Made by a program: the position numbers and the translations under genes
The notes under the pieces: model-generated
Database searches by the model: none
What the model was told of the DNA's origin: nothing
The model's input: only the letters and a program-made list of their open reading frames with translations
Shown: positions 23,388-40,250 of the stretch, piece after piece
How positions within the stretch are numbered: position 1 is the first letter of the stretch
How the letters are laid out: each line of letters starts with the position of its first letter
NCBI GenBank assembly: GCA_039589315.1
Contig: JBDHHQ010000028.1
Coordinates: 1 to 47,999, forward strand
Source: Gemmatimonadota bacterium
GTDB lineage: Bacteria; Gemmatimonadota; Gemmatimonadetes; Longimicrobiales; Gaopeijiaceae
Reading direction: 5' to 3'
Length of the DNA: 47,999 bases

Positions 23388-25883
23388 CTATCCCAGCTTC
23401 TCCGACAGACGGCCCAGGGCCTCCATCAGGTCGGGCCGAACGTCGAGCACCGCCCGCATCGGGTCGTGACCCAGCTTCTTCATGCGCTTGGCCACGGTCT
23501 GGATCGTGTGCCGGCGCACCTTCAGCCCGCCGTTCACTTCGTCCCAGGTGAGCGGCGTCGATACGGCCGCCTCGGGCACTGGGCGAACGCTGAAGGGCGC
23601 GACGATGAGCTGGCCGTGACGGTTCTGCAGGAAGTCGATGTAGACCTTCCCGTCCCGCTGACTGATCGTCCGCGTGATGGTGGCGATCTCGGGCATCTCG
23701 GCTACGGCCACATGGGCCAACAGGTGTCCCAGCGTGCGTGACTGCTCGTAGGTGCACTGTCGTCCCAGGGGGATCAGGATGTGGAGGCCGGTGGAGCCCG
23801 TGGTCTTCACGTAGGTGGGCAACTCCAGCTCGTCACAGAGCCCCTTCAGGAACACGGCCACCTTCACCACGTCCGAGAAGGGGGCGTCCTTCGGATCCAG
23901 ATCGATCACGCACCAGTCGGGCTTGCCGAGCGTCCCCACGCGACTCGACCAGATGTGGAGGGGGATGGTCGCCAGATTCGCCAGATACAGCAGCGACTCC
24001 TGGTTCTCCACGACGAAGTACGACAGCTCGCGCTCCGACGACTCGCTCCACACCGTCACGGTCCGGAGCCACTCGGGAGCCCAGCCTGGCGCGTCCTTCT
24101 GGTAGAACGATTTGCCGTCAATGCCGTCGGGGTAACGGGTCAGTACCACGCATCGGTCCTCCAGGTACGGCTCCATCCACTCCCACGCCGTCCGGTAGTA
24201 CTCGATCAGATCACCCTTGGTGTAGCCCCCCTCAGGCCAGAAGACCTTGTCGAGGTTGGTGAAGGGGATCGCCCGCTCCTCTTCGCCCGACACGGCCTCG
24301 GGCTCGGCTAGCTCTCTCTTGGGGTCGTCCAGTCGGCAGTCGGCGGGAGGTTTGTCGTCTCGAATACGCTGGAACACGGGCTGGCGGAGCAGGCCGACGT
24401 CGGTGAACTCCTTGAAGCGCACCTCGGCGACGAGCTGGGGTCTCACCCAATGATGCCCGTCACCCGACGGCGCCGGTCCCTCGACGGGCGCGTCGTCCAC
24501 CTCGAGGGCCTCGAGCTCCTGCCGCAACTCGTCCAACTGGGCGCCGGTGAACCCGCTGCCGACCCGCCCCACGTAGAGCAGGTCGTCACCCGCGTACTGG
24601 CCCACATGCAGAGCCCCGAGCCCCTTCCGGGAGCCGGTCGGCTCGGTGAAGCCCACGATGACGAAATCGGAGCTGCGGTCCGCCCGGATCTTCAGCCACT
24701 CTCTTGACCGCACGCCTCGGTACGGCGCGTCCTCCTTCTTGGCTACGATGCCCTCGAGGCGCATCTGCTGGACCTGATCGAACATGGCCTCACCCTGCTC
24801 GGCGATGTGATCGGAGAAGCGCAGCGGACCCGTGGACGGCAGGAGCCTCCGGAGCAGTCGCTTTCGCTCCAGCAGAGGGAGGGGCCGGACGTCGAAGTCC
24901 TGGAAGCCCAGCAGATCGAAGAGGTAGAGGGTCGCGGGGAGCGTCACCGCGGCCCGGGCCACGTCACCCCGGCGAGTCAAGCGACCCCGTCGCTGCAGAC
25001 GGGAGAAGCTGGGCAAGCCATCCGCGTCGTGGACCACCACCTCGCCGTCCAGCACCAGGTGCGGGAAAGGCAGCAGGGATGTGGCCCGCGCCACCTCAGG
25101 AAACGTCTCGGTCAGGTCGTTTCCGGCCCGGGACCAGAGCCGCACCTCCTGGCCGTCCTTCGCGACGATCAGGCGATAGCCGTCGTACTTGATCTCGAAG
25201 ATCCAGCCCTCGCGGGTAAAGGCACCGTCCCGCGGCGTCGCGAGCATGGCCTTTGCCTCCTTCCCGTCCACCCACTCATGCGGCGCCTCCAGATCCTCCA
25301 GCTCCGCCTCGATCTCCCTCACGCGATCGACACCGCCCTTCATCTCCGCGACCGTCAGGCCCGAGTAGACGGAGTCCTGAGGGTAGTCCTCGGTGCTCTT
25401 GTCGCTGGCGAAGCCGTCGCGCTCCTTGATCAGGAGCCAATCCTCCTTGGTCTTCACGAGGGTCCAGACGCCGTGGAGCTTGTAGCCACGGAGCTCGAAC
25501 AGGAGCTTCCCCTTCTCCATTCCGGCGTCCGGGTCCTCCAGAGGGATCCAGATGCCCCGGTCCCAGACGATGACCGCCCCCGCTCCGTAGCTTCCCTCGG
25601 GGATGAACCCCTCGAAGTCGGCGTAGTCCAGCGGATGGTCTTCGGTGTGGACCGCGAGCCGCTTGTCTTGGGGATTGGGCGAAGGCCCCCGGGGCACCGC
25701 CCAGGACAGGAGGACGCCTTCCCACTCCAGACGAAAGTCGTAGTGAAGGCGCCGGGCCGCGTGCATCTGGACGACGAACTGCAGGCCCCCGCCGGAGGCG
25801 GGCGCCGAGTCTCGTGCCCCGAAGGGCTCTGGGGTCGCGGAAGCCGAGCGCTTGGCGCGGTAGGCTTCGAGGCGGTCAGCCAT
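23388..25883 (-). CDS. ligD: DNA ligase D (phosphoesterase-ligase-polymerase), NHEJ
   Basis: PE domain FVVQMHAARRLHYDFRLE; ligase EIKYDGYR and EGIVAK; primase-polymerase TNLDKVFWP, RYPDG, DLDP and KTTGSTGLH. Confidence 0.96.
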   Translation of the reverse strand: MADRLEAYRAKRSASATPEPFGARDSAPASGGGLQFVVQMHAARRLHYDFRLEWEGVLLSWAVPRGPSPNPQDKRLAVHTEDHPLDYADFEGFIPEGSYGAGAVIVWDRGIWIPLEDPDAGMEKGKLLFELRGYKLHGVWTLVKTKEDWLLIKERDGFASDKSTEDYPQDSVYSGLTVAEMKGGVDRVREIEAELEDLEAPHEWVDGKEAKAMLATPRDGAFTREGWIFEIKYDGYRLIVAKDGQEVRLWSRAGNDLTETFPEVARATSLLPFPHLVLDGEVVVHDADGLPSFSRLQRRGRLTRRGDVARAAVTLPATLYLFDLLGFQDFDVRPLPLLERKRLLRRLLPSTGPLRFSDHIAEQGEAMFDQVQQMRLEGIVAKKEDAPYRGVRSREWLKIRADRSSDFVIVGFTEPTGSRKGLGALHVGQYAGDDLLYVGRVGSGFTGAQLDELRQELEALEVDDAPVEGPAPSGDGHHWVRPQLVAEVRFKEFTDVGLLRQPVFQRIRDDKPPADCRLDDPKRELAEPEAVSGEEERAIPFTNLDKVFWPEGGYTKGDLIEYYRTAWEWMEPYLEDRCVVLTRYPDGIDGKSFYQKDAPGWAPEWLRTVTVWSESSERELSYFVVENQESLLYLANLATIPLHIWSSRVGTLGKPDWCVIDLDPKDAPFSDVVKVAVFLKGLCDELELPTYVKTTGSTGLHILIPLGRQCTYEQSRTLGHLLAHVAVAEMPEIATITRTISQRDGKVYIDFLQNRHGQLIVAPFSVRPVPEAAVSTPLTWDEVNGGLKVRRHTIQTVAKRMKKLGHDPMRAVLDVRPDLMEALGRLSEKLG

Positions 25884-25993: not shown

Positions 25994-26758
25994 ATGTCCG
26001 ATCCCGAGCGACCGAGGCGCCGATACGGCGAAAAGGAAGTCGGCCTGATCCTCAAGCGGGCCACGGAGCTGCAGCAGGAGGCGCCGGAGCTCACGGAGGG
26101 TGGTGGCCTGACGCTCGAGGAGTTGGAGGAGATCGCCGTGGAAGCCGGCATCGACCCCCGGTTCCTGCGGGATGCGGCGGCGGAGCTGGACACGCGGGGA
26201 CCAACGCCCGAAGGCAGGGAGCGCCTCCTAGGGGGCCCCCTAATGGTGGAGCTCGAACGGAGGGTGCAGGGGGAGGTACCCGAGGATCGCTGGGACGACG
26301 TCATCCACGAGATCTCCCGGGCTGCCGACGGGCAGGGACACCCCAGCGTGATCGGGCGCACGCTCTCCTGGGTGCTCTCGGACCCCAATCGCCAGCGCTT
26401 CCTCCAGGTGACGGTGGCGAACCGGGAGGGGGAGACGGTGATCCGCATCGAGGAGCGGATGCAGCAGCTCGCCGGTGCGATCTACGGAGGGATCATCGGC
26501 GGCGTAGGCGGGGGCCTGGGGCTCGGTGTCGGCCTCGGCGTGGGCCTCGGCGCCCTGGGCTCGGCCGTATTCGCCACCGTGTTTCCGGTCACGGTGTTGG
26601 CCGGGTCGTTCTGGGTGGCGCGGACGGCGTTCGGGAGCACCGCCACCAAGCGCCGGAGAGCGCTCATCACGCTGCTGGACCGGCTCACTGAGCTGGTGGA
26701 GCGGCCGCCTCGTCTGGAGGACGGGGAGCCGCCGGCCGGCGCCTTACCAGCATCTTGA
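25994..26758 (+). CDS. Hypothetical membrane protein
   Basis: N-terminal RRYGEKEVGLILKRATELQ...LEELEEIAVEAGID and a C-terminal Gly-rich TM hairpin. Confidence 0.75.
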   Translation: MSDPERPRRRYGEKEVGLILKRATELQQEAPELTEGGGLTLEELEEIAVEAGIDPRFLRDAAAELDTRGPTPEGRERLLGGPLMVELERRVQGEVPEDRWDDVIHEISRAADGQGHPSVIGRTLSWVLSDPNRQRFLQVTVANREGETVIRIEERMQQLAGAIYGGIIGGVGGGLGLGVGLGVGLGALGSAVFATVFPVTVLAGSFWVARTAFGSTATKRRRALITLLDRLTELVERPPRLEDGEPPAGALPAS

Positions 26759-27173
26759 ACGTACCCCGCTGAAGCTCGGCTCCCCCGGCGTCCACGAGTG
26801 ACGCCGCCAGTACCACGATTCCCCGGTCCGGCCGGGAGGTCCGGCGCGTGGAGTCCACTCGGATGCGTACGGTCACGGCGGTGCCCAGTCGGATGGGCGC
26901 CACGAAGTCCCAGGTCAGGCCCAGAAGTGCCACCAGCGTGCCCCGTGTGAGCCGGGACTGGTTGAGGAGCCCCGTGGCGACAGCCAGCCCCAGGACCCCG
27001 TGGGCCACCCTCTCTCCGAAGGCGCCGGCACGGGCGTATTCCGGGTCCAGATGCAGCGGGTTCCTGTCTCCCGAGACGTCCGCAAAGGCGAAGACCGCCT
27101 CTTCGTCGACGACCCTCGACGACGTCTCGAGCTCGGTGCCCACGCGAAAATCTTCGAAGTAAAGGGACTCCAC
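26685..27173 (-). CDS. MaoC/PaaZ-C-terminal-like hotdog-fold (R)-specific enoyl-CoA hydratase
   Basis: LYFEDF, FADVSGDRNPLHLD and RVAHG motifs; divergent from paaX. Confidence 0.9.
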   Translation of the reverse strand: MESLYFEDFRVGTELETSSRVVDEEAVFAFADVSGDRNPLHLDPEYARAGAFGERVAHGVLGLAVATGLLNQSRLTRGTLVALLGLTWDFVAPIRLGTAVTVRIRVDSTRRTSRPDRGIVVLAASLVDAGGAELQRGTFKMLVRRRPAAPRPPDEAAAPPAQ

Positions 27174-27206: not shown

Positions 27207-27248
27207 TATATTACACTATTGATACGATCGTAGATAGAGTGACATATA
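27207..27248. promoter_or_regulatory. Putative PaaX operator and divergent promoter region
   Basis: AT-rich 42-bp dyad TATATTACACT-N20-AGTGACATATA (9/11 arm match), centred exactly on the perfect palindrome TACGATCGTA (27223-27232). Confidence 0.6.
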
Positions 27249-27299: not shown

Positions 27300-28211
27300 A
27301 TGAACCGTCAGCGGCCCCAGGACCTGGTCTTCACCCTCTTCGGGGAGTACCTCCTTCCCCGAGCCGGGCCCGTTTGGGCGGGAACTCTCATCGACCTGCT
27401 GGAGCCTCTGGGCGCCTCCGAGGGAGCCGTCCGTACCACGCTCTCGCGCATGTCCCGGAAGGGCTGGTTCGACACGGTTCGCGCCGGGCGGCGTAGCTTC
27501 TACCAGCTCACACGCAGAGGTCGAGCGCTCCTCGAGGAAGGCCGGGAGCGCATCTACCATCCGTCCTGGGACGAGCCCTGGGACGGCCGCTGGCTGCTGC
27601 TGGCCTATTCGATTCCGGAAGACCGCCGTGAGCTGCGGGACCGATTGCGGGACCGGGTCGGCTGGCTCGGATTCGGCGCCCTCGGCAACGGTCTTTGGAT
27701 CTCTCCGCACGACGTGGAGGGCCAGGTACGAGACATCGCCTCGGACCTGGGCATCGAGGAGCATCTGGAGTGCTTCCATGCCGAGGGTGCAGGATTCACC
27801 GAGCCGGATCGCCTCGTGTCTCGCTGCTGGGACCTGGAGTCCCTGAACCGACGGTATGAGGGCTTCATCGCTCGCCACGTACCTTCGTTCCTGGAGCTGC
27901 GGCAGCCGACCGAGCCGGGCGTGGCGTCCCCCCGCGACTGCTACGTACGCCGCTTCCAGCTCTCCCACGAGTTCAGGGAGTTCCCCCTCATCGATCCCTA
28001 CCTGCCGCGGTCGCTCCTGCCACCCGACTGGGCCGGCGAATGCGCCGCGGCGCTGTTTCAGAGCTACCACGACCTGCTGACCGATCCCGCCGACCGGTAC
28101 GTGGAGTCGCTACTGGCCATGGGTGGCACGCCCGCCGGCAGGGTTGCCCCCACGTCGAAAGTTGCAACCGGCCGTGGATCCCGGGCCGCCCAACGTCGCC
28201 TCGCGAGGTAA
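27300..28211 (+). CDS. paaX: PaaX family transcriptional repressor
   Basis: LVFTLFGEY, AVRTTLSRMSRKGW, WDGRW, LGFG and FPLIDPYLPRSLLPPDWAG motifs. Confidence 0.92.
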   Translation: MNRQRPQDLVFTLFGEYLLPRAGPVWAGTLIDLLEPLGASEGAVRTTLSRMSRKGWFDTVRAGRRSFYQLTRRGRALLEEGRERIYHPSWDEPWDGRWLLLAYSIPEDRRELRDRLRDRVGWLGFGALGNGLWISPHDVEGQVRDIASDLGIEEHLECFHAEGAGFTEPDRLVSRCWDLESLNRRYEGFIARHVPSFLELRQPTEPGVASPRDCYVRRFQLSHEFREFPLIDPYLPRSLLPPDWAGECAAALFQSYHDLLTDPADRYVESLLAMGGTPAGRVAPTSKVATGRGSRAAQRRLAR

Positions 28212-28213
28212 TC

Positions 28214-29308
28214 ATGGAACCGTTCCCAATCAGGACCCCCGACTCGTTCGACTTCGGCGAGATCATCTACGAGAAGAAGGACTGGGTGGCCACGGTCACC
28301 ATCAATCGGCCCTTCAACTACAACGCCTACTCCACCTCTGCCCTGGAGGAGCTCGCGACGGCGTTTCGCGACGCCGCTTTCGACGACCAGATCGGCGTGG
28401 TCGTGTTCACGGGTGCCGGGCACCGCGCGTTCTGCACGGGCGGCGACGTCAAGGAGTACGAAGCGCTCTACACCACGAGGCCCCGGGACTACTGGAAGTA
28501 CATGGGCCTCTTCCGCGCCTACATCGAGAGCATCGTGAACACGGGGAAGCCCGTGATCGCGCGGCTCAACGGCATGGCAGTGGGCGGAGGCAACGAGTCG
28601 CAGATGGCCTGCGACCTGGCGGTCATGGCAGAGCACGCCTTCATCGGACAGGTCGGCACGCGAGTCGGCAGCGTCGCGGCGGGGGGCGCCACCCAGTGGC
28701 TGCCCATTCTGATCGGCGACCGGCGGGCCCGGGAGATGCTTCTCTTCAACGGACGCATCGGCGCTCACCAGGCGCTGGACTGGGGTCTCGTGAACCGGGT
28801 GGTGCCGTCGGTCACCCTGAATGGCGAGTTCGTCGAGGGCGCGTCGGAGGAACAGGTCCGCAAGGCGCAGGACGAGGAGGACGGATACGCCATCAGCCTC
28901 GCCCTGCTGGACCGGGCGGTAGCCGATCTGGTGGAGAAGCTCCTCAGCCAATTCCCCGAGTGCACCCGGTACACGAAGCAGCAGGTCAACTTCTGGAAGG
29001 ACCTCGCCTGGCACCAGACGATCGGCCACGCCCGAGACTGGCTGGCGGTCCACTACACCGCCCTCGAGCCGTGGGAGGGCATGCGTGCGTTCGTCCAGAA
29101 GCGTCGGCCTCGGTACATGGACGTCCGGTCCCGGGCGGCCGACGGCGGCTCCAGTGAGTTCGTCTGGGGTCCGCCCAGTCGGGATTGCCCGGCCTGTGGC
29201 GCCGAGGGGATCCCCGAGAGCTTCCGCTTCTGCGGCGCATGCGGTGGCGCCCTCGACGTCGGCCACGGCGCGACCGGTGACGCCGCGACGGCGGAGGCCC
29301 GGGGATGA
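28214..29308 (+). CDS. oah: 6-oxocyclohex-1-ene-1-carbonyl-CoA hydrolase (Oah/BamA-like) with C-terminal zinc ribbon
   Basis: Crotonase fold with Oah-typical YNAYST, AFCTGG..KEY, YMGLF, and the VVP...NGEFV...ISLALLD insertion; context with bcr genes. Confidence 0.8.
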   Translation: MEPFPIRTPDSFDFGEIIYEKKDWVATVTINRPFNYNAYSTSALEELATAFRDAAFDDQIGVVVFTGAGHRAFCTGGDVKEYEALYTTRPRDYWKYMGLFRAYIESIVNTGKPVIARLNGMAVGGGNESQMACDLAVMAEHAFIGQVGTRVGSVAAGGATQWLPILIGDRRAREMLLFNGRIGAHQALDWGLVNRVVPSVTLNGEFVEGASEEQVRKAQDEEDGYAISLALLDRAVADLVEKLLSQFPECTRYTKQQVNFWKDLAWHQTIGHARDWLAVHYTALEPWEGMRAFVQKRRPRYMDVRSRAADGGSSEFVWGPPSRDCPACGAEGIPESFRFCGACGGALDVGHGATGDAATAEARG

Positions 29309-30075
29309 GCACGCCCTCGTTCCTGCACGTCCGTAATGAAGGGGGCGTCGCGAGGCTCTCCCTGGCCCGGCCCCCGCTGAACGTGCTGGACCTGCCCATG
29401 CTGGAGGAGATGCGCCGGACTCTCTCCGCTCTCGGCAGTGATCCCGCCGTCCGCGTGCTCGTGCTGACCGGCGAGGGACGCGCCTTCTGCGCCGGCGTCG
29501 ACGTGGCCGACCACACGGCCGATCGGGTCGACGCCATGCTCGAGGCCCTTCACGAGGTGTTCCTCGAGCTCCTCCGCGTCCAAGCCCCGGTGCTGGCCGC
29601 CGTGAACGGAGCGGCCCTCGGGGGTGGTTGCGAGCTCCTTCTGGCCTGCGACGTCGTGCTGGCCCGCGCAGGAGCCAAGATTGGGCAGCCCGAGGTACGG
29701 CTCGGCGTCTTCCCGCCCGTGGCCGCCGCCTACCTCCCCCGGATCGTGGGTCCGCAGGCGGCCCTCGACCTGATCCTCTCGGGTCGGACCATCCTCGCGG
29801 AGGAGGCCAGGGAGCTCGGCCTCGTCACCCGGGTCCTGTCACCCGATGAATTCGACGCCGAGGTGGCACGGTACGCCGCCTCCCTCGCCGACCTCAGCGG
29901 ACCGGTCCTGCGCCTGGCCAAGCGGGCCGTGCGCGAAGGTCTGGAGAAGCCCGCCACTCGGGCGCTCAAGCGGGCCGAGTCGCTCTACCGGCACGACTTG
30001 ATGCGCCTCGACGACGCCCACGAAGGGCTGGCCGCGTTCCTGGAGAAGCGCGCGCCCGTCTGGAAAGGAGCCTGA
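29305..30075 (+). CDS. dch: Cyclohexa-1,5-diene-1-carbonyl-CoA hydratase (Dch-like)
   Basis: [36 protein letters not shown] and [16 protein letters not shown] motifs; operon context. Confidence 0.8.
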
Positions 30076-30079
30076 CGCC

Positions 30080-31279
30080 ATGGCCAGCTCGGATACGGCC
30101 CGATCCTCGAACCCCGAAACCCGCCTCCTCGACGTAGATCTCGACCAGGAGCTGCCCCGGGTTCTCGCGGACCTCAGGGACGCGGTGGAGGATCCGGATT
30201 TTCCGACGGTGCGGCGCTGGCGAGACGGGGGCGGCAAGGTACTCGGCCACTTCCAGGTCTACTTCCCCGAGGAGCTGGCCCACGCCGCCGGCATGCTGCC
30301 GGTCAAGCTGCGGGGTGCGCAGGTGGAGCGAAGGGAGGCTGACTCGCACTTCGGCTCCTACCTGTGCTCGATCCTGCGCAGCACCCTCGAGCTGGCGCTG
30401 AGCGACCGCCTGCAGGTCGACATGTTCGTGACGCACCCGATCTGCGACGCCGCGCGCAACCTGGCCGGGATCTGGGGGCGCAACCTGCCGCAGCCGGCGC
30501 AGATCCTCTACCTGCCCCAGAACCCCAACTCGGCCTTCTCCAGCACGTACCTGGAGGAGGAGTACGCCCGCGTCCTGCGCGACCTCGAGGGACTGGTCGG
30601 CAAGAGGGTGGCCCCGGCGGATCTGCGGCGCTCCATCGCCGTGTTCAACCAGAACCGTCGCCTCCTGCGCGAGCTGTACGACATCAAGCGGGACTCGCCC
30701 TGGCTGCTGCCCGTGGATGAAGCGTACGTGCTGGTGGCGTTGGCCGGCATCCTGCCCAGGGAGGAGCACAACGAGCTGCTCACAGCCCTGCTTCCCCGGA
30801 TCCGGTCCCGCGACGCCCGGGCCCAGGACCGCATGCGGGTGGTCTTCGAGGGTGGCTTCTGCGAGCAGCCGCCCCTCGATCTGCTCAGGTCCATCGCCCA
30901 GTTCTGCTACGTCGTCGACGACGATCTGCTGATCGGTCTGCGCTGGATCCTGGACGACGTCTCCCTCGAGGGGCGGCCCCTCATGAGCCTGGCCGACGCC
31001 TACCTGAACCACTCGTCGTACAGCCCCGTGCAGCACGATCTCCGGAAGCCCAAGGAGAAGATGTTGCTCGCGCGCATCCGCGACGCCCGGGCGGAGGCGG
31101 CCATCGTGGCCGCGGCCAAGATGTGCGAGCCCGGCCTCGACGAGCAGGTGGCCTACGGACAGGCCCTGGACGAAGCCGGCATCCCGTATTTCCTGACCGA
31201 GTTCGAAGAGAAGATGACGTCATACGACCACCTGCAGATCCAGCTGGAGACGTTCGTCGAGAACCTGCTGTTCGCCTGA
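30080..31279 (+). CDS. bcrC: Class I benzoyl-CoA reductase subunit C (HgdB/FldC family)
   Basis: [46 protein letters not shown] and [10 protein letters not shown]; resembles Thauera-type BcrC. Confidence 0.85.
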
Positions 31280-31363
31280 GGCCGGCCGGCGATCCCGTCC
31301 CGCCCCGTCCGAGGCGGACGGAGCGCCCGTCGGCCGGGCCTGGACACCGAAACGGAGTGGGAC

Positions 31364-32737
31364 ATGACACCTACGGTGACGGATCAGGAGCTCATGGGCC
31401 GCGGCACCCGCGACGGCGCGCGGTTGTTCCGGGAGTGGTTCGCGCGGCTCTCGACATCGGCGGAGCGCGGTGATCCCGCGGCCTACGTGTTCGTCATGGG
31501 AAGCCTGGCGGAGGTCCTGCGGAGCTTCGACCTGCGCATCGTCTTTCCCGAGATCAACTCCCTGCAGACGGCCGTGAGAAAGGTCTCGGACGAGTATCTG
31601 AGCCTGGCCGAGGATCACGGGTTCTCCCCGGACGTCTGCGGATACGTGAAGGCGGACTACGCCCTCCAGATTCGGCGGGGCCAGCACCCCATGGGCCGGA
31701 TCCCTCCTCCGTCGGTGGCGGTTCTTACCAACGCCTGCAACACCTACCTGAAGTGGGCCGAGATCTGGGAGCGGATGTACGACGTGCCCATCGTGACGGT
31801 GGACGTCCCCGGGACACGCGGCCCGGGTGCGGCCGGCGTCGCCTCGGCCCAGGACTTCGAGCGGGACCGCAAGTACGTGGAGCACCAGATCCGGGAGCTG
31901 ATCGCGGTGCTCGAGGATGTCACGGGCACGCCGTTCGACATCGATCGCTGCCGGGAGGTCCTTCGACACACGAACGAGATGGGGAGGAGCTGGCGTCGCG
32001 TCCTGGAGCTGAACCGCGGCACCCCCGCGGTCTTCGACTCCATGCTCGAAGGCACCATCTACCTCGGGGTCGCCAACGCGCTCCGTGGCACGCCCGAGGG
32101 AGCGAGGTACTTCGAGGACCTCGTCGAGGAGATGGAGGCGAAGCGGCTGGCGGGCGTGAGCCCCCTCATCGACCACAGCGAAGAGCATCGCTTGATCTTC
32201 GTGGGCGTTCCGTGCTACCCCATCTTCCGTCGCTTCTACCAGCTGTTCTCCGAATGGGGCGGGGTCTTCGTGGGCTCCACCTACCTGTGGTTCGCGTCTG
32301 GCGGCCTGAACATCGACTTCGAGTACGACCTCTCCCGCCCCATCGAGAGCCTCGCGGAGGGGGTGGTCCTGGGCGTCCGGAAGGCGGTGGACTCCATGCT
32401 CTTCCAGGATGACGCCATCATCGAGGCCATCGACAGCTTCGACGCCGACGGTGTGGTCTACCATCCGGTCAAGAGCTGTCGGACGGTGTCGACCGGCTTG
32501 GCCGACAGCCGTCGGGTCGTGCTGGAGAACCGTGACGTGCTGTGCCTCTACATCGAGTCGGACATGATGGACAAGCGGGTCGTCTCGGAGGCCCAGCTCA
32601 AGAACCGGATCGACGCGTTCTTCGAGGGCCTCCAGTCCAGGAAGCTCCGGCTCTCGGGCGCCAAGCCGGCCAAGGCCGCGACGAGCGGGGCAGCCTCGGG
32701 ACCGCCGTCGGGAGCGACCAAGCGAGGAGGAGGCTGA
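31364..32737 (+). CDS. bcrB: Class I benzoyl-CoA reductase subunit B (HgdA/FldB family)
   Basis: [30 protein letters not shown] and KNRIDAFFE motifs. Confidence 0.85.
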
Positions 32738-32738
32738 C

Positions 32739-33560
32739 ATGTCCTACGCAGCGGGTGTGGACGTAGGCTCCACCCAGACGAAGGCCATAATCGTGGACGA
32801 AGACGGCGCCATCGTTGGCCGGTCCCTACTTCCGACCGGAGCGAATGTGGTCGCTGCGGCAGAGCACGCCTTCGCCACTGCGCTCGCCGACCGAGGGCTC
32901 TCGGAAGACGAGGTGGGCTTCGTGATCGGGACGGGGTACGGCCGGTACCGGGTCGAGTTCGGCGACACGCAGATCACGGAGATCGTGTGCCACGCCCGGG
33001 GCGCGGCGGCCATGTTCCCCGACACGGAGACGGTGCTGGACATGGGCGGCCAGGACACCAAGGCGATCCGCATCAAGAAGGGCGGCGACGTCCTGGACTT
33101 CTGTATGAACGACAAGTGTGCCGCAGGCACCGGACGGTTCCTCCAATCCGCCGCCGCGGCGCTCGAGATGGAGCTCGCCGACCTCGGCCCCACCGCCCTG
33201 AAGGGCCAGCGTCCGGTCAAGATCAGCACCACCTGCACCGTCTTCGCCGAGTCCGAGGTGCTCTCGTGGCTGGCCCGGGGCAAGCGGATCGAGGACATCC
33301 TGCTGGGCGTCCACGAGTCCATCGCCTCGAGGTCCTTCGCGCTCCTGCGCCGGGTGGGGATCCAGGGCGAGATCACGTTCACGGGCGGCGTCACGCGGAA
33401 CGAAGCCATGGTCGCTGTCATGAACCAGATCCTCGAGGCGGAGATGAACGTGAGCGAAGAGTCGCACTACATGGGCGCCCTGGGTGCGGCCCTCTTCGCC
33501 CTGGAGCGCATCCACAAGGGCCGCGAGCCCCTGCGGCCTCGGGAGGAGGTGTCGGCATGA
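32739..33560 (+). CDS. bcrA: Benzoyl-CoA reductase ATPase/activase subunit A (ASKHA; BcrA/BzdQ-like, short form)
   Basis: [43 protein letters not shown] and [11 protein letters not shown] motifs. Confidence 0.8.
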
Positions 33561-34378
33561 TGGTGACGGCGGGCATCGACGTGGGGTCCACGTACACGAA
33601 GGCCGCCCTGATCGGCAGCAGCGGCCACCTCCTATCCACGGGGATCCGGCACACGGGCTTCAAGCTCGAGCAGGCCGCCGAGGGCGCACTGAGGCAGGCC
33701 CTCGAGGAGGCGGGAGCTGGCCGGGAGGACGTGACGTATCTGGCCACGACCGGCTACGGGCGGAACCAGGTCGGCTCCCGGGATGTGCAGGTCACCGACC
33801 TCACCGCCCAGGCCTGGGGCACCCGGTACTTCTTCCCCGGGACGCGGACCGTCCTGGACATCGGCGGGCAAACCATGAAGGCCATGCGCCTCGACGAGAC
33901 CGGCAAGGTCCAGTCCTTCCGCCTCAACGACAAGTGCGCCGCCGGAACGGGAGCCTTCCTGGAGAAGACCGCCCGCTACCTTGGCTATGGCATCCAGGAG
34001 ATCGGCCCGATGGTGGAATACGCCCGGGAGCCCGTGCCCATATCGGGGGTGTGCGCCGTGTTCGCCGAGTCCGAAGTGATCAACCACGTGAGCAACGGCG
34101 CCCAACCAGCCGACATCATGCACGGCGCCATGACCTCGTTGATCGAGCGGTCCGTGCGTCTCATGAAGCGGGTGCGCATGGAGCCCGAGTTCACCCTGGT
34201 GGGCGGCATCATGAGGTTCCCCACCATGGTGAGGGTCATGCGTGAGCAGCTCGGCCAGTCCGTGAACGTGCCACCCGAGCACCTGGTCCAGTTCACGGCG
34301 GCCATCGGCGCCGCCATCCTGGCCGGGCGTCGTCTCAAGAAGCTGGGGGAGCCCGCTCAGGCGGTGCTCTCCCCCTGA
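33557..34378 (+). CDS. bcrD: Benzoyl-CoA reductase ATPase/activase subunit D (BcrD/BzdP-like)
   Basis: C-terminal part of ORF 32987..34378 from ATG 33557 (GGAGG RBS). [23 protein letters not shown] and [11 protein letters not shown] motifs. Confidence 0.8.
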
Positions 34379-34381
34379 GCC

Positions 34382-34669
34382 ATGGCCATGACCGAGCACA
34401 TCGATCCTTCGGCCCCGGGCGACGTGGCGAGCGCCATCGCCACGGGGATCCGGCGGGCCCGCCGGGACGCCGAGCTCGCAGCTCAGGGCTGGACGCGTCG
34501 CTTCGTGGGCGCGCCTCCCCGGCTCAGCGAGATGGCGGACCTGTACGAGTCGCTGGGGAACGAGGTGCTGCTGGACGCGGTGACCGACGGCGAGCTGGCG
34601 GAGGCGTGCGCGGGATGCGCGCTGGCGCTCACCTTCTTCAAGGTCATCTACACGAGGAGCGGGACGTGA
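34382..34669 (+). CDS. Small hypothetical protein with CxxC motif
   Basis: GWTRRF...PRLSEMADLYESLG...ACAGC...VIYTR; 3 nt after bcrD and overlapping the had start. Confidence 0.75.
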   Translation: MAMTEHIDPSAPGDVASAIATGIRRARRDAELAAQGWTRRFVGAPPRLSEMADLYESLGNEVLLDAVTDGELAEACAGCALALTFFKVIYTRSGT

Positions 34670-35688
34670 AGGCAGCCGTCTTCCACGGGGCCGACCGGCC
34701 CCTCACGGTCCAGGAGGTCCCCACGCCCACGCCCGGACCCGAGGAGCTGCTCGTGCGGGTGGCCGGGTGCGGCGTCTGTCACACCGACCTGCACTACGTC
34801 GATCACGGGACCCCCACCTTCAAGCCGCCTCCGCTGGTTCTGGGCCACGAGGTCGCAGGCACGGTCGCCGAGGTGGGTGACGAGGTCGACGGGTTCCAGG
34901 CCGGTGACCGCGTGCTCCTGGCGGCCGTCCTGTCCTGCGGGCGCTGCGGGCTCTGCAGGATCGGCCGGGAGAACCTGTGCGAGAACGGTCGCATGCTGGG
35001 TAATCACACGGACGGAGGGTACGCAGAGTTCCTGACGGCGCCGGCCCGGGACGCCTTCCACCTCCCCGACGAGATCCCCGTGGTGGAAGGCTCCATCATC
35101 GCCGACGCCATCACGACGCCGTACCACGCCGTCGTGAACCGCGGCCGGGTCACGCCAGGCGATCACGTCGTCGTCGTGGGGTGCGGTGGGGTGGGGCTCA
35201 ACGTGGTGCAGGTGGCGGCCGCGCTGGGCGCACAGGTCGTGGCCGTGGACCTGTCCGAGCAGAAGCTCGAGTGGGCGGGCCGACTCGGAGCCGTGGCCAC
35301 GGTGAATGCTACCACCATGGAACGGGTGGACCGTGAGGTCCGGAGCCTCACCGGCGGTGGCGCACACATCGCCTTCGAGGTCGTGGGGCACCCCGATACC
35401 CAGTCCACGGCCCTGTCCTGCCTGCGAACGGGCGGCCGACTGGTGCTGGTGGGGTACAGTCCCGGGAAGATGGCCCTGAACTCCGGCCGCGTGATGTTCC
35501 GGGAGCTCGAGGTCGTGGGCTCGCTGGGATGTCGCCCCGTGGACTATCCGCGTGTCATCGAGCTCGTGCGCCGGGGCAGGATCAGCCTCTCGCCGCTCGT
35601 CACACATCGCTTTCCCCTCGACGAGATCGGAGACGCTTTCGACACGCTCCGTGCCGGCGAAGCGATCCGCGCGGTGGTGATGCCTTGA
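34666..35688 (+). CDS. had: Zn-dependent alcohol dehydrogenase, probable 6-hydroxycyclohex-1-ene-1-carbonyl-CoA dehydrogenase
   Basis: CGVCHTDLH, LGHE, structural Zn CxxCxxC...C, GCGGVG and GSLGC motifs; GTG start; operon context. Confidence 0.8.
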   Translation: MKAAVFHGADRPLTVQEVPTPTPGPEELLVRVAGCGVCHTDLHYVDHGTPTFKPPPLVLGHEVAGTVAEVGDEVDGFQAGDRVLLAAVLSCGRCGLCRIGRENLCENGRMLGNHTDGGYAEFLTAPARDAFHLPDEIPVVEGSIIADAITTPYHAVVNRGRVTPGDHVVVVGCGGVGLNVVQVAAALGAQVVAVDLSEQKLEWAGRLGAVATVNATTMERVDREVRSLTGGGAHIAFEVVGHPDTQSTALSCLRTGGRLVLVGYSPGKMALNSGRVMFRELEVVGSLGCRPVDYPRVIELVRRGRISLSPLVTHRFPLDEIGDAFDTLRAGEAIRAVVMP

Positions 35689-36641
35689 GCGGCTCGGCCG
35701 GGACGGCCTTCCCTCGGTGGTGGGCGGTGACGCAGGGACTCGCGCTGGTGGGGCTGGGGGGGCTGCTCGTGGCGCTGGCCGTGGTCCCCGAGGTCGCCCT
35801 GCGCACCTTCTGGTATGGGTTCATTCCAGTGGTGCCACTGGTGCTCATGGCGAGTCCCAACCTTTGGCGCAACGTCTGCCCGCTAGCGACGCTGAACCTG
35901 ACGACGGGTCGACGCTGGGGCCGACGGGCCCTGACGCCGGCCCTGGCCCGCCGGACCGGCGCAGCGGGAATCCTGTTGCTCGCGTTGCTCGTACCCTCCC
36001 GGCACCTGCTGTGGAACTCGAGCGGTCTCGCTCTCCTGGCCCTCGTAGCGGTGCTCGGCGTATCGGCGCTCGCCCTGGGCCTCGTCTTCGACGCCAAAGC
36101 GGGGTTCTGCAACTCCATCTGCCCGGTGCTTCCCGTAGAGCGCCTCTACGGACAACGGCCGTGGCTCGAGCCCGGGAACCCGCGGTGCCCGAGCTGCGAC
36201 GTCTGTACGCGGGGGGGATGCCTGGACCTGGGTCCGACGAAGTCCGTCGCACAGACGCTTGGCCCTGCGCGCAAATCGACGCGTTGGATCCTTACGCCTT
36301 TCGGGGCCTTTGCCCTGGCCTTCCCTGGATTGATCGTGGGGTACTTCACCTTCACCCTCGGGTCAGGGACAGCGCCGTTTCTCGTCTTCGTGCACGTCGG
36401 GGCCTGGATGGCCACGAGCTACGCGGTGGGGTCCGTGGCGGTCGGCGTCTCGAAGCTGCCCGCCGAGATCGCCGTCGCCCTGGCGGCAGCCGCCGCCTTC
36501 ATCCTCTACTACTGGCTCAGCGCGCCGACTGTGGTCGAGGAGCTGGGGCTGCCCCCGCTCACCACCGCGGTCATCCGGTCCGGCGCTCTCGTCGTCGCCG
36601 GCGTATGGCTCTGGAGAGCCATCCCAGGAAGGAAGACCTGA
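35685..36641 (+). CDS. Polytopic membrane Fe-S protein (NapH/CcoG/NosR-like Cys motifs)
   Basis: About 8 TM segments with WRNVCPL, FCNSICPV and CPSCDVCTRGGC; TTGA overlap with had. Confidence 0.75.
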   Translation: MSGSAGTAFPRWWAVTQGLALVGLGGLLVALAVVPEVALRTFWYGFIPVVPLVLMASPNLWRNVCPLATLNLTTGRRWGRRALTPALARRTGAAGILLLALLVPSRHLLWNSSGLALLALVAVLGVSALALGLVFDAKAGFCNSICPVLPVERLYGQRPWLEPGNPRCPSCDVCTRGGCLDLGPTKSVAQTLGPARKSTRWILTPFGAFALAFPGLIVGYFTFTLGSGTAPFLVFVHVGAWMATSYAVGSVAVGVSKLPAEIAVALAAAAAFILYYWLSAPTVVEELGLPPLTTAVIRSGALVVAGVWLWRAIPGRKT

Positions 36642-36642
36642 C

Positions 36643-38094
36643 ATGCGCGAGACGATCATCGAGCCGTTCAAGATCAAATCCGTCGAGCCGATCCGCTTCA
36701 CCTCTCGTGCAGAGCGCCTCGAGCTCCTGCGCTCGGCGGGATACAACGTCTTCCTCCTCCGAGCGGAGGACGTGCTCATCGATCTTCTGACCGACAGCGG
36801 CACGTCGGCCATGAGCGCCCGGCAGTGGAGCGCCATGATGCAGGGAGACGAGGCGTACGCGGGCAGCCCGTCCTACTACAGGTTCAAGGAGGCCGTGCAG
36901 AGCATCTTCGGCTTCGAGCAGGTGATCCCCACGCACCAGGGAAGGGCGGCCGAGCGCATCCTCTTCTCCACCGTTTGCCGTCCCGGCCACGTGGTGCCCA
37001 ACAACACCCACTTCGACACGACCCGCGCCAACATCGAGGCTGCCGGGGCGGAAGCCCTGGACCTACCGGTCCCCGAAGGTCTGATCCCGTCGGAGGCGCG
37101 GCCCTTCAAGGGCAACATGGACACGGGCCGGCTCGAGGCGCTCATCGAGGAGGTGGGTGCCGAGCGCATCCCCCTCTGCATGCTGACGGTGACCAACAAC
37201 ACCGGTGGCGGTCAGCCGGTCTCCATGGCCAACATCCGCGAGGTGTCCGGCATCTGCGGTCGGCACGGCATTCCCCTCTACCTGGACGCCTGCCGCTTCG
37301 CGGAGAACGCCTACCTGATCAAGCTGAGGGAAGAGGGCTACGGGGATCGGAGCGTACGAGAGATCGCCCGGGAGATGTTCTCGCTGGCCGACGGCTGCAC
37401 CATGTCAGCGAAGAAGGACGGACTCGCCAACATCGGCGGCTTCCTGGCCACCAACGACGCGACCCTGGCCCGGCGCGAGCGCGATCTGCTGATCTTGACG
37501 GAGGGGTTCCCCACCTACGGCGGCCTGGCCGGGCGGGACCTGGAAGCCGTGGCCGTGGGGCTCGAGGAGGTGCTGGACGAAAGTTACCTCCGGTACCGCC
37601 TCGCGACGGTGCGGTACCTCGGCGATCACATCGCCCGGCAAGGGGTGCCCATCGTTCAGCCACCCGGCGGTCATGCCGTGTACATCGACGCCGCGGCGTT
37701 CCTGCCTCACGTCCCCCCGACGGAGCTCCCCGGACAAGCCTTGGTGGCCGAGCTGTACCTGGAAGGGGGCGTCCGGGGCGTCGAGGTGGGGACGGTCATG
37801 TTCGGACACCAGGATCCCGAGACCGGCGACGAGATCCCCGCTTCGATGGAGTTGGTCCGGTTGGCGCTGCCGAGAAGGGTGTACACGCAGAGCCACGTCG
37901 ACTACCTGGTGGAGGTGATCGCCAGCGTCTGGCGGCGGCGCGAGGGCATCGGCGGCTTCCGCTTCGTGCGCCAGGCTCCCGCGCTGCGTCACTTCACGGC
38001 CCGCTTCGAGCCCCTCTACGGGCTCGCCTCCGATACCGCCTCCTCGGATCCGTCCACTTCGGACACACCCACGTCATCGGAGGTACCCGCGTGA
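36643..38094 (+). CDS. tnaA: Tryptophanase-type beta-eliminating lyase (PLP)
   Basis: EPFKIKSVE, DLLTDSGT, GDEAYAG, PTHQGR, MSAKKD and YGGLAGRD. FDTT, GVEVG and LRHFTARF match tryptophanase rather than tyrosine phenol-lyase (FTTT, MERG, LRFF). Confidence 0.8.
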   Translation: MRETIIEPFKIKSVEPIRFTSRAERLELLRSAGYNVFLLRAEDVLIDLLTDSGTSAMSARQWSAMMQGDEAYAGSPSYYRFKEAVQSIFGFEQVIPTHQGRAAERILFSTVCRPGHVVPNNTHFDTTRANIEAAGAEALDLPVPEGLIPSEARPFKGNMDTGRLEALIEEVGAERIPLCMLTVTNNTGGGQPVSMANIREVSGICGRHGIPLYLDACRFAENAYLIKLREEGYGDRSVREIAREMFSLADGCTMSAKKDGLANIGGFLATNDATLARRERDLLILTEGFPTYGGLAGRDLEAVAVGLEEVLDESYLRYRLATVRYLGDHIARQGVPIVQPPGGHAVYIDAAAFLPHVPPTELPGQALVAELYLEGGVRGVEVGTVMFGHQDPETGDEIPASMELVRLALPRRVYTQSHVDYLVEVIASVWRRREGIGGFRFVRQAPALRHFTARFEPLYGLASDTASSDPSTSDTPTSSEVPA

Positions 38095-38633
38095 GCACGG
38101 ACCAGGTCACCAAGGCCCTGCGCGACGAGCATCAGCTCATCCTGAGGGTCGTGGCGGCGCTGGAGGAGCTGCTGGAGTCCCCGACCCTCGACATGGAGGC
38201 CATCGAGAGCTGCGTTTCATTCTTCCGGCTCTTCGTGGACGCCTGCCATCACGGTCAGGAGGAAGGACTGCTCTTCCCCGAGCTCGAGGCGACCGGGATG
38301 CCCCGGGAGCAGGGTCCCATCGCGGTGATGCTGGAGGAGCACCGGATCGGCCGGGCGCTGGTCGGCAGGATGCGAAATGCGCTTCCGGGGGTCCGTGACG
38401 GCGACATCGATGCCGACGCCGCCTTCCGCGATGCCGCGCGCAACTACGTCTACCTGATCCGCGGTCACATCCGGAAGGAGGACGGCATCCTGTTCACCCA
38501 CGCGGACCACGTCCTGGGCGCCCCGGCCTGCGCCAGGCTCTGCGAGGGGTTCGAAGAGGTGTGCGCCAGGAAGTTCGAGGGCTGTACGAAGGCACAGTTG
38601 GAGGAATTGGCCGCGCGGGTCATGCACCGCTGA
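38091..38633 (+). CDS. Hemerythrin domain protein
   Basis: EHQLI, CHHGQEEGLLFP, GPIAVMLEEH and HIRKEDGILF motifs; GTGA overlap with tnaA. Confidence 0.9.
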   Translation: MSTDQVTKALRDEHQLILRVVAALEELLESPTLDMEAIESCVSFFRLFVDACHHGQEEGLLFPELEATGMPREQGPIAVMLEEHRIGRALVGRMRNALPGVRDGDIDADAAFRDAARNYVYLIRGHIRKEDGILFTHADHVLGAPACARLCEGFEEVCARKFEGCTKAQLEELAARVMHR

Positions 38634-39386: not shown

Positions 39387-40250
39387 ATGGCTGCTCGACC
39401 CATCGCTGCATCGACGATCTCCTTCGGCCTGGTCTCGCTCCCGGTCAAGCTGTTCTCCGCGTCCGAGACCAAACGTAAGATCTCCTTCAACATGCTGAAT
39501 GAGAAGACGGGGAACCGTCTCAAGCAGCAGTACATCGACTCCGAGTCCGGGGACCTCGTCACGCGGGATGAGATGATCAAGGGCTACGAGTTCGCGAAGA
39601 ACCAGTACGTGACCTTTACACCGGACGAGCTCAAAGCGATCGAACAGGCGAAGACGGACGCCATCGAGATCGTCGAGTTCGTCCCCGCCGATCAGGTCGA
39701 CCGCATCTTCTTCGCCAAGGCCTACTACCTCGGTCCGGACAGAGGCGGTGCCCGGGCGTACCGGCTCTTGTCGGCCGCCCTGCGGGACACGGGTCGCGTG
39801 GCCGTCGCCAAGTACGCCACCCGGGGCAAGCAGTACCTGGTGATGATCCGTCCCCAGGAGGACGGGCTGCTCATGGAGCAGCTTCACTACGCGGACGAGG
39901 TGCGCGACTTCGCCGAGGTGGAGCTGGAGGACGGGGATGTGAGCGACGCGGAGCTGGAGTTGGCCCGCCAGCTCATCGCGCAGGCCTCCAGCGACGAGTT
40001 CCGCCCCGAAGCCTATACGGACGAGGTCAGGGAACGGATGCTGGAGCTGATCCAGTCGAAGGTCGACGGCGAAGAGATCACCGTCGTTGCCGAAGAGCCG
40101 CCCCAGACCCAGATCATCGATCTCATGGCCGCCCTCAAGGCCAGCCTGGAAGGCGGTGAGGCCGCCGAGGGCGAGAAGAAGCCGGCGAGCCGGGCCGAGA
40201 AGAAGCCCGCCGCCAAGAAATCCACCAAGAAGAAGGCCGCCTCAGGCTGA
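39387..40250 (+). CDS. ku: Ku protein (NHEJ DNA end-binding)
   Basis: ISFGLVSLPVKL, KGYE, YYLGP and IIDLMAALKASL motifs; Lys/Ala-rich C-terminal tail. Confidence 0.96.
   Translation: MAARPIAASTISFGLVSLPVKLFSASETKRKISFNMLNEKTGNRLKQQYIDSESGDLVTRDEMIKGYEFAKNQYVTFTPDELKAIEQAKTDAIEIVEFVPADQVDRIFFAKAYYLGPDRGGARAYRLLSAALRDTGRVAVAKYATRGKQYLVMIRPQEDGLLMEQLHYADEVRDFAEVELEDGDVSDAELELARQLIAQASSDEFRPEAYTDEVRERMLELIQSKVDGEEITVVAEEPPQTQIIDLMAALKASLEGGEAAEGEKKPASRAEKKPAAKKSTKKKAASG

Follow-up and report, generated by a model that had tools for sequence, protein, structure and literature searches.

What does a PaaX-family regulator do at the head of genes for anaerobic reduction of the aromatic ring, and which compounds would such genes serve? 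The question is raised by contig JBDHHQ010000028.1 of a Gemmatimonadota genome (GenBank assembly GCA_039589315.1, order Longimicrobiales), in which a paaX-like gene leads genes for a benzoyl-CoA reductase (BCR), its companion enzymes, a tryptophanase-type lyase and a hemerythrin domain protein. The window analysed here is this entire contig (C28, 47,999 nt), and the genome of 6.67 Mb is 95% complete. We assign a probability of roughly two in three to the reading that these genes form a packed operon for an MBR-type reductase, likely repressed by PaaX at a 40-bp dyad, that likely reduces and opens benzoyl-CoA or ring-substituted benzoyl-CoAs anaerobically. Loci, genomes and contigs are numbered below with the prefixes L, G and C, G000 being the host genome.

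Operon structure and reductase class

The map of open reading frames (ORFs) bears out the arrangement described in an earlier annotation made from the DNA letters alone (the sequence-only reading). All 12 ORFs lie on the plus strand at positions 27300-38633, with a GC content at third codon positions of 0.81-0.92. With starts picked from ribosome-binding sites and overlaps, the junctions measure +2, -4, +4, +84, +1, -4, +3, -4, -4, +1 and -4 nt, the only long one separating the genes formerly called bcrC and bcrB (here subunits N and O). Family scans agree in outline with the gene names of that reading: they returned PaaX, Oah-, Dch- and Had-like proteins as top NCBIfam matches, two HGD-D catalytic subunits, two BadF/BadG/BcrA/BcrD ATPases, a beta-eliminating lyase and a hemerythrin domain, and gave no Pfam or NCBIfam family match for orf95 or the membrane protein. 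As had also been noticed, neither a CoA ligase nor a soluble ferredoxin is encoded within the operon. No terminator-like sites were found at the operon junctions (two scan matches lie inside genes, below the shuffle mean), and a sigma-70 scan found no promoter. The 84-nt spacer (31280-31363) contains a GC-rich hairpin without a U-tail, at -43 kcal/mol with no shuffle control.

The best relatives of all four reductase subunits in the PDB are MbdN, MbdO, MbdQ and MbdP, which lead dehydratase and BZD proteins by 110-400 bits. The catalytic subunit N (30080..31279, 399 aa) matches 9G87_B at 530 bits, against 131 for HadC and 106 for BzdN, and the catalytic subunit O (31364..32737, 457 aa) matches 9G87_A at 483 bits, against 119 for HadB and 74 for BzdO. 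The two electron-activating ATPases, Q (32739..33560, 273 aa, formerly bcrA) and P (33557..34378, 273 aa, formerly bcrD), match 9GAI_D and 9GAI_C at 365 and 288 bits, against 218 and 175 for a dehydratase activator. Cysteines C92, C125 and C372 of subunit O and C96, C122 and C349 of subunit N align with cysteines of MbdO and MbdN, and C127 and C166 are invariant in both the Q and the P alignment; we take these residues to be Fe-S ligands. All scores against the curated equivalog models fall below their cut-offs, both for the Thauera type (TIGR02259-02263; B 196/487, C 267/421, A 211/578, D 139/313) and for the BZD type (TIGR03190-03192; O 73/449, N 99/454, Q 177/380), and the same holds for HadB and HadC (139/750 and 152/700).

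A quick tree of subunit O comprised 66 rows, namely 27 locus rows including the window and 39 near-full-length sequences out of 150 representatives. Subunit O falls in a 43-row clade together with two over-cut-off BcrB proteins (SH-aLRT support 100), and the window protein belongs to a 35-row subclade without BcrB. It stands apart from the HadB-type rows rather than among the 2-hydroxyacyl-CoA dehydratases, a placement which the sequence-only reading had named among the risks to its assignment. MbdO itself was not a row of this tree, which counts against the assignment to its type, so that MBR membership is carried by the pairwise scores. Class I BCR comprises three types, BCR, MBR and BZD, according to the portion consulted of PMC11971306, and the four subunits very probably constitute an enzyme of the MBR type. 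Hence the class proposed in the sequence-only reading stands, and its comparison with the Thauera/Azoarcus pathway gives way to the MBR type.

That reading had also ranked the locus as the best candidate for an undescribed system, which does not hold for the enzyme core. The MBR type is described and widespread: it was matched in at least 524 GTDB stretches, and an MBR-type subunit O is present in 29 of 151 sampled genomes of the phylum, including the host. The best 80 of these 524 or more loci, some of them truncated by contig ends, come from Gemmatimonadota, Acidobacteriota, Chloroflexota, Planctomycetota and others, and contain O (80), Q (76), N (74), P (71), orf95 (49), dch (48), had (45), oah (35), paaX (20), tna (14), hemerythrin (11) and the Fe-S protein (4). 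A plasmid search gave no close reductase (best identity 24%).

Two further kinds of locus were observed. Loci L102-L103 (G016) and five other phylum genomes have a second, more distant cluster type with duplicated N/O/P/Q-like genes and O homologues of ~30-35% identity. In acidobacterial N-O-Q-P loci (L024, L026, L029, L039, L047, L048 and others), an amidohydrolase and a short-chain dehydrogenase precede the reductase genes in place of oah, dch and had.

The PaaX-family regulator and its predicted operator

The first gene (27300..28211, 303 aa) encodes the only PaaX-family protein found in the genome. It has the winged helix-turn-helix, central and C-terminal PaaX domains (PF07848, PF20803, PF08223), is 33% identical to E. 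coli PaaX, and scores below the cut-off of TIGR02277 (235.6 against 264.55 bits). A comparison of the 170-nt regions preceding paaX in 20 loci, the window among them, yielded a 40-bp three-part dyad (27208..27247) with arms ATATTACA...TGACATAT and centre TACGATCGTA, in which 28 of 40 positions are self-complementary (shuffle mean 11.8). Leave-one-out scores are 16.5-60.4 in all 20 training sites. When the window and its closest relative were left out of the matrix, the window dyad scored 59.0 and the next best site of the genome 17.3.

The site was then sought more widely. Among the remaining loci, scores above 13 were obtained for L099, which has paaX, for L006 and L035, and for L041 (23.5, unexplained). 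When up to two mismatches were allowed, a pattern search matched 23 of 30 genomes, for the most part at a single site immediately ahead of paaX (2 for the reversed control); with three mismatches it was no better than the reversed control and yields leads only. PaaX matches occur in 33 of 251 genomes at the level of the order. In a held-out test that excluded the host genome, two duplicates, two genes with cut upstream regions and distant PaaX matches, the dyad was found before 12/12 reductase-adjacent paaX genes (28.7-55.9) and before 0/14 orphan ones. No further convincing site was found in the host genome with the full or the arms-only matrix, and none before the ligases, the hcr-like genes or the PaaA-like gene.

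These observations argue well for the dyad being an operator bound by the PaaX-family protein, and hence for likely regulation of the operon by it. The E. coli PaaX site, as given in the part of PMC9493321 that was consulted, is 39 bp long with the structure TGATTC-N27-GAATCA; the window site matches it in span and differs in its half-sites. As to the ligand, PaaX is more likely than not released by a benzoyl-type CoA ester rather than by phenylacetyl-CoA.

Orphan paaX loci (L203-L206, L209, L214, L216, L220, L222, L224-L228) share their neighbourhood, a hydrolase, a HEAT-cyclophilin protein, a dicarboxylate/amino-acid symporter and aminotransferases, with reductase loci such as L003 and L159, which suggests loss of the operon from that site.

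The dyad in rearranged operons and before a PaaA-like gene

Several genomes have the operon split or rearranged. In two genomes (G156 and G173; loci L006 and L035) a dyad precedes dch-N-O-Q-P (scores 37.9 and 33.8), and a separate contig carries the unit paaX-tna-hemerythrin, headed by a weaker dyad of its own (25.6 and 14.3). G224 has one dyad before paaX and another before N-O-Q-P-orf95-tna-hemerythrin, and in L010 the tna gene is divergent from paaX with the dyad between them. Thus, the site follows the reductase genes and tna, and not only paaX. An unusual insertion was seen in G224 (L211, G224:C28, 2831-10652, minus strand): genes for a TetR regulator, an AFOR-family protein and HdrD-, HdrA- and MvhD-like proteins, resembling the modules of class II BCR (Bam), stand between paaX-had-oah-dch and N-O-Q-P within this class I operon, the second dyad (score 48) preceding N.

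A divergent PaaA-like gene is present in 28 of 30 PaaX-bearing genomes of the order. In the family of the host (f1), 12 of 14 genomes have a variant of the dyad whose centre lies 31-34 bp ahead of the start of this gene (15.6-38.5); the variant was found in none of 14 genomes of a second family (f2), all of which have the reductase. The variant and the reductase dyad have their outer arms in common and vary in the centre. The two f1 exceptions (G282, G207) have the dyad before reductase genes instead, and G348 combines a reductase operon without the dyad with a PaaA-like gene that has it. The same PaaX regulator therefore probably controls a PaaA-like aerobic epoxidase in relatives that do not have the operon. 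Weighing against this exchange, the contrast between f1 and f2 largely tracks kinship, so that a Fisher test overstates it, and is broken by only these three genomes. The host itself has a divergent PaaA/D/C-like cluster (L091, G000:C15, 24046-26491) preceded by a perfect 18-bp palindrome with AACGATCGTT that resembles the site of the TetR-type PaaR.

Downstream enzymes and functions probably supplied in trans

Three genes of the operon would continue the pathway beyond ring reduction: an Oah-like ring-opening hydrolase with a C-terminal CxxC/CxxC ribbon (28214..29308, 364 aa), a Dch-like dienoyl-CoA hydratase (29305..30075, 256 aa) and a Had-like Zn-dependent dehydrogenase (34666..35688, 340 aa). 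Their top matches are the corresponding models TIGR03200, TIGR03189 and TIGR03201, and all three stay under the curated cut-offs (206.7 of 464.45, 187.5 of 292.5 and 255.1 of 338.65 bits). In addition, a search at E<=1e-60 left 8 of 30 genomes without an oah match, and in seven of these the operon likewise has none. Both points weigh against the scheme, and the downstream chemistry may therefore differ. The reductase operons without oah are those of L003, L004, L005, L006, L016, L019 and L035; no oah was found at the same threshold in their genomes, in which ring opening may thus use another enzyme.

The functions that the operon does not encode are available elsewhere in the genome. Two genes of the benzoate-CoA-ligase family score over the cut-off. 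A pair resembling the 4-hydroxybenzoyl-CoA reductase HcrAB (G000:C15, 94339-98760) stays below it (alpha 871/995, beta 303/405 bits), and a 77-aa ferredoxin is encoded ~9 kb away (107443-107676). The genome also encodes RnfB and RnfC, two over-cut-off 2-oxoacid:acceptor oxidoreductases, a PFOR-like protein, and NarG and a clade II-type NosZ, both over cut-off. Given ligase-family genes, ferredoxin, Rnf, NarG and NosZ in trans, their absence from the operon needs no special explanation; the ligase of Azoarcus CIB likewise belongs to a separate operon in the text available from PMC4424350. This gene set would fit a facultative respirer of nitrate and N2O that uses a class I BCR.

By analogy with the characterised family, Q and P would hydrolyse ATP to drive electrons from reduced ferredoxin to N and O, which would yield a cyclic dienoyl-CoA; Dch, Had and Oah would then convert this to a product of the 3-hydroxypimeloyl-CoA type. 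The aryl-CoAs, ferredoxin and respiration would be supplied by the ligase-family genes, the HcrAB-like reductase, the ferredoxin, Rnf, the 2-oxoacid oxidoreductases, NarG and NosZ. The operon's own PaaX-family protein would repress it at the dyad until a benzoyl-type CoA ester released the repressor.

The tryptophanase-type lyase

The eleventh gene (36643..38094, 483 aa) encodes the only pyridoxal phosphate-dependent beta-lyase of the tryptophanase type found in the genome. It scores 685 bits against NF009709 (cut-off 285), is 43% identical to E. coli TnaA, and stays below the cut-offs of TIGR02617 (488.9/825.8) and TIGR02618. At the five sites where two annotated tyrosine phenol-lyases (TPLs) differ from E. 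coli TnaA (TPL positions 124/288/379/381/448), it has D/F/V/V/H, TnaA D/F/V/I/H and the TPLs T/M/M/R/F; D, F and H at 124, 288 and 448 are present in all 35 aligned locus lyases. We take positions 124, 381 and 448 to govern the specificity of the two enzymes, and by sequence the lyase is a tryptophanase. Entry of tyrosine via phenol was rejected: T124, R381 and F448 are missing, and no phenylphosphate-carboxylase-like gene was found in the 95% complete genome. No TnaB-like permease was detected in the genome at E<=1e-8.

The sequence-only reading had proposed anaerobic catabolism of aromatic amino acids, which the operon may serve. The co-regulated tryptophanase could feed tryptophan in via indole and anthranilate, which we regard as tentative and as the weakest step of the scheme. 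The anaerobic breakdown of indole passes through oxindole, isatin and anthranilate, and its enzymes still await identification, as far as the consulted part of PMC6221969 goes. No clustered indole-oxidation genes and no route from indole to anthranilate or benzoyl-CoA were identified in the host genome, and its six molybdenum enzymes of the xanthine dehydrogenase (XDH) type, three cyclases and five hydantoinase matches are scattered over different contigs; both results tell against the step. The one exception, an XDH and a cyclase together on C87, was set aside as an indole pathway because its neighbours are nucleobase transporters. The only kynureninase match stays below the cut-off (109/246). 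Elsewhere in the genome (L089 and L090; G000:C50, 9583-17510 and 27972-34115), a tryptophan dioxygenase, an over-cut-off PRK08255 (AbmA-like) enzyme and a benzoate-ligase-family gene are likely to constitute an aerobic route for tryptophan and anthranilate.

Since no indole-oxidation cluster was found, a supply role of the lyase stays a serious rival, if on balance an unlikely one. It would provide pyruvate, made from tryptophan, serine or cysteine and serving as a source of ATP and reduced ferredoxin, or else sulfide for Fe-S clusters, with the hemerythrin buffering oxygen or iron for the oxygen-sensitive reductase. Tryptophanases have side activities on serine and cysteine. Such a role agrees with the 2-oxoacid oxidoreductases and Rnf of the genome and with the genes for Rrf2, ScdA/RIC-type hemerythrins and FeoB that recur beside reductase loci. 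On the other hand, the dyad stays with paaX-tna-hemerythrin after the operon is split, as would be expected if an aromatic signal induced the unit; the lyase has the active-site residues of a tryptophanase; and the dioxygenase and AbmA-like enzyme encoded on a single contig point to aerobic handling of anthranilate.

Linkage of the three 3' genes to the reductase

The last three genes could instead be passengers, added downstream of the operon in a single lineage and irrelevant to ring reduction. Their conservation with the reductase, as assumed in the sequence-only reading, stands only in part: among 16 paaX-headed loci with downstream sequence, tna is present in 10, hemerythrin in 7 and the Fe-S protein in 3, and all three together in one, so that the tna link is kept and a fixed module is not. 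Moreover, tna is common in the phylum (68 of 151 genomes), occurring in 23 of the 28 other MBR-positive and in 44 of 122 MBR-negative genomes. Where tna and O coexist in this sample, they lie within 10 kb of each other in only 3 of 23 genomes, as tna-TetR-oah, and are unlinked in the other 20. Family f2 has tna in 12 of 14 genomes, yet within 10 kb of the reductase in only one, and no dyad was found near its 11 unlinked copies. These counts tell against a general role of tna in the pathway. Against the passengers, reductase-linked tna genes occupy at least three clades in several orders and arrangements, including upstream of a TetR-headed operon and divergent from paaX; tna keeps the dyad in split operons; and in family f1 it is present in 2 of 3 reductase-positive and missing from 13/13 reductase-negative genomes. 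The link between tna and the reductase is real but optional, and we consider mere passengers improbable.

The other accessory genes differ in how regularly they recur. The small CxxC protein orf95 (34382..34669), which belongs to no known family, follows subunit P in 49 of the 80 loci, with G36, W37, R40, Y55, G59, V62, C76, C79 and Y90 invariant in 35 sequences. Its predicted structure (pLDDT 80) gave no Foldseek match at E<=0.001, a best Z of 4.2 and atlas matches below 0.9. A complex prediction with Q/P scored 0.45 (best of 3 controls 0.00), the runs agreeing in at least 44% of contacts and the partner pLDDT being at least 62. The mark used is reached by 116 of 157 solved complexes and 2 of 215 mismatches, of which 18 of the 157 and both mismatches are at or below 0.60; a score in this range is therefore more often wrong unless the complex is likely beforehand. 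The prediction hints weakly at orf95 as a possible accessory of the ATPase pair.

The membrane protein (35685..36641, 318 aa) has two CP motifs and a CxxCxxC motif and is predicted to bind 4Fe-4S clusters. Its atlas matches (0.94-0.96) lie in 4Fe-4S clusters of the Fer4_5 type, Fer4_5 being annotated on 11% of one cluster, and its 551 homologues form a wider family that is optional at reductase loci (4/80). The hemerythrin (HHE) domain protein (38091..38633, 180 aa, PF01814), also optional (11/80), accompanies paaX and tna in split operons. Judging by its family and the recurring Rrf2/ScdA neighbours, its most likely task is the handling of oxygen or iron. Next to the reductase operons L009, L011, L017, L078, L079, L095, L096 and L272, genes for Rrf2 regulators, cytochrome b-Fe-S-MvhD membrane proteins and ScdA/RIC-type hemerythrins are found repeatedly.

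Upstream, a divergent gene for a MaoC-like (hot-dog) dehydratase (26685..27173, minus strand, PF01575) shares its intergenic region with paaX; it is divergent from paaX in 4 of the 80 loci and in 11 of 12 reductase-linked loci of the order sample with upstream sequence. Two bacterial end-joining genes, LigD (23388-25883, minus strand) and Ku (39387-40250, plus strand), lie on opposite sides of the operon. The nearest locus, also from Gemmatimonadota, has a 92% identical subunit O and the identical order of 15 genes; other close loci belong to Longimicrobiales.

Alternative regulators, effectors and enzyme classes

The resemblance of the dyad centre to the site of a TetR-type regulator weighs against PaaX as sole regulator. 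PaaX might occupy the outer arms of a composite dyad and a TetR/PaaR-like protein the central ACGNNCGT palindrome, or TetR alone might be the true regulator. In favour of this, the centre is similar to the T. thermophilus PaaR consensus CNAACGNNCGTTNG given in the accessible text of PMC9493321 and is what sets the paaA-type variant apart, and a bare AACGNNCGTT precedes the PaaA-like gene in 5 of 14 f2 genomes and in the host. However, a full dyad scoring above 13 was found in only one remaining locus without this PaaX (L041) and not in TetR-headed reductase loci, and the arms and the centre hold a fixed register. We therefore doubt a shared or TetR-type site about as much as mere passengers.

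Still less probable is a classical phenylacetyl-CoA sensor, with the operon as the anaerobic end of phenylalanine and phenylacetate breakdown. E. coli PaaX responds to phenylacetyl-CoA in the part of PMC9493321 consulted, PaaA/C/D-, PaaZ- and PaaF/G/H/J-like genes are present in the host genome, and the dyad variant precedes a PaaA-like gene in relatives. Nevertheless, none of 25 genomes has a PaaK over the cut-off, and 23 of them have none at 1e-30; the PaaA-like protein shares 27% identity with E. coli PaaA and scores 129, the cut-off being 280; and no POR comes near the phenylglyoxylate dehydrogenase cut-offs. From the PaaK and PaaA results we infer a benzoyl-type effector common to both ring enzymes.

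That the four subunits are a 2-hydroxyacyl-CoA dehydratase and its activators for amino-acid fermentation is hardly credible, for all their common superfamily, sub-cut-off BCR scores and co-encoded amino-acid lyase, in view of the lead of MbdO and MbdN over HadB and HadC, the two distinct ATPases matching MbdQ and MbdP, the Dch, Had and Oah neighbours and the tree.

Comparison with known systems

The best solved relative of all four subunits is MbdONPQ (PDB 9G87, 9GAI, 9GAL, 9GBA), with two short ATPases, two catalytic subunits and aligned cysteine motifs; the window differs in its Gemmatimonadota-like uncultured host, its gene order N-O-Q-P and the conserved orf95 behind P. In the text available of PMC4424350, the mbd cluster of Azoarcus (Aromatoleum) sp. 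CIB combines an MBR reductase, hydratase, dehydrogenase and hydrolase in one operon, with the ligase, an ABC transporter and the lower pathway clustered, and is repressed by the aryl-CoA-responsive TetR protein MbdR at an 18-bp operator (ATAC-N10-GTAT). In contrast, the window operon has neither ligase nor transporter, and it has a PaaX-family protein with a 40-bp dyad, a tryptophanase and a hemerythrin instead of MbdR. The Thauera BcrABCD and BZD BzdNOPQ systems are alike in reaction class and accessory enzymes; the Q subunit of the window has 273 aa against 432 positions in the BcrA model, and its O subunit is in a separate subclade from over-cut-off BcrB.

The PaaX regulon of E. coli and Pseudomonas, so far as the consulted text of PMC9493321 describes it, has a similar three-domain regulator (PDB 8A39) in an autoregulatory position and a dyad of ~40 bp, and the window's relatives add a dyad before a PaaA-like gene. 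It differs in the half-sites, whereas the window has an extra central palindrome, an anaerobic reductase as target and no PaaK found. Unlike TnaA and TPL, the lyase stays below both equivalog cut-offs and is placed under a PaaX-type site with no TnaB-like permease found.

The regulators described for anaerobic benzoyl-CoA pathways in the literature surveyed, as far as its text was available, are BzdR/BoxR, BadM and the TetR-type MbdR. Benzoyl-CoA pathway genes are reported there from assorted uncultured phyla, with Gemmatimonadota in passing (PMC11704145, PMC10936416, bioRxiv 2025.11.25.690425). No description of a PaaX-controlled reductase operon, the 40-bp dyad or the tryptophanase link was found in a search that covered neither subscription papers nor supplements. 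The enzyme core is already of a known kind; what is new is the regulator, its site, and the move of that site between anaerobic and aerobic ring enzymes.

Conclusions

Taken to its full extent, the reading would be that PaaX and a new operator switched, in the evolution of Longimicrobiales, between the ring reductase and a PaaA-like epoxidase acting on the same benzoyl-type CoA ester, that the tryptophanase operon marks an anaerobic route for tryptophan and indole via 2-aminobenzoyl-CoA in nitrate- and N2O-respiring Gemmatimonadota, and that orf95 is a fifth MBR component. All these together we consider unlikely to hold.

With a PaaX-family repressor and its defined operator, the anaerobic benzoyl-CoA pathways would gain a further type of regulator. 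The move of the operator from anaerobic to aerobic genes would provide a handle on the substrate of the divergent PaaA-like epoxidase, present in nearly all PaaX-bearing genomes of the order. Anaerobic indole degradation is called a black box in the part of PMC6221969 consulted; the recurrent tryptophanase link does not itself supply the missing enzymes, and it points to genomes worth examining for this process. Finally, the reductase occurs in about one fifth of the sampled genomes of the phylum, and in the host alongside nitrate and N2O reductases, so that this abundant, mostly uncultured group may contribute to the turnover of aromatic compounds in anoxic environments.

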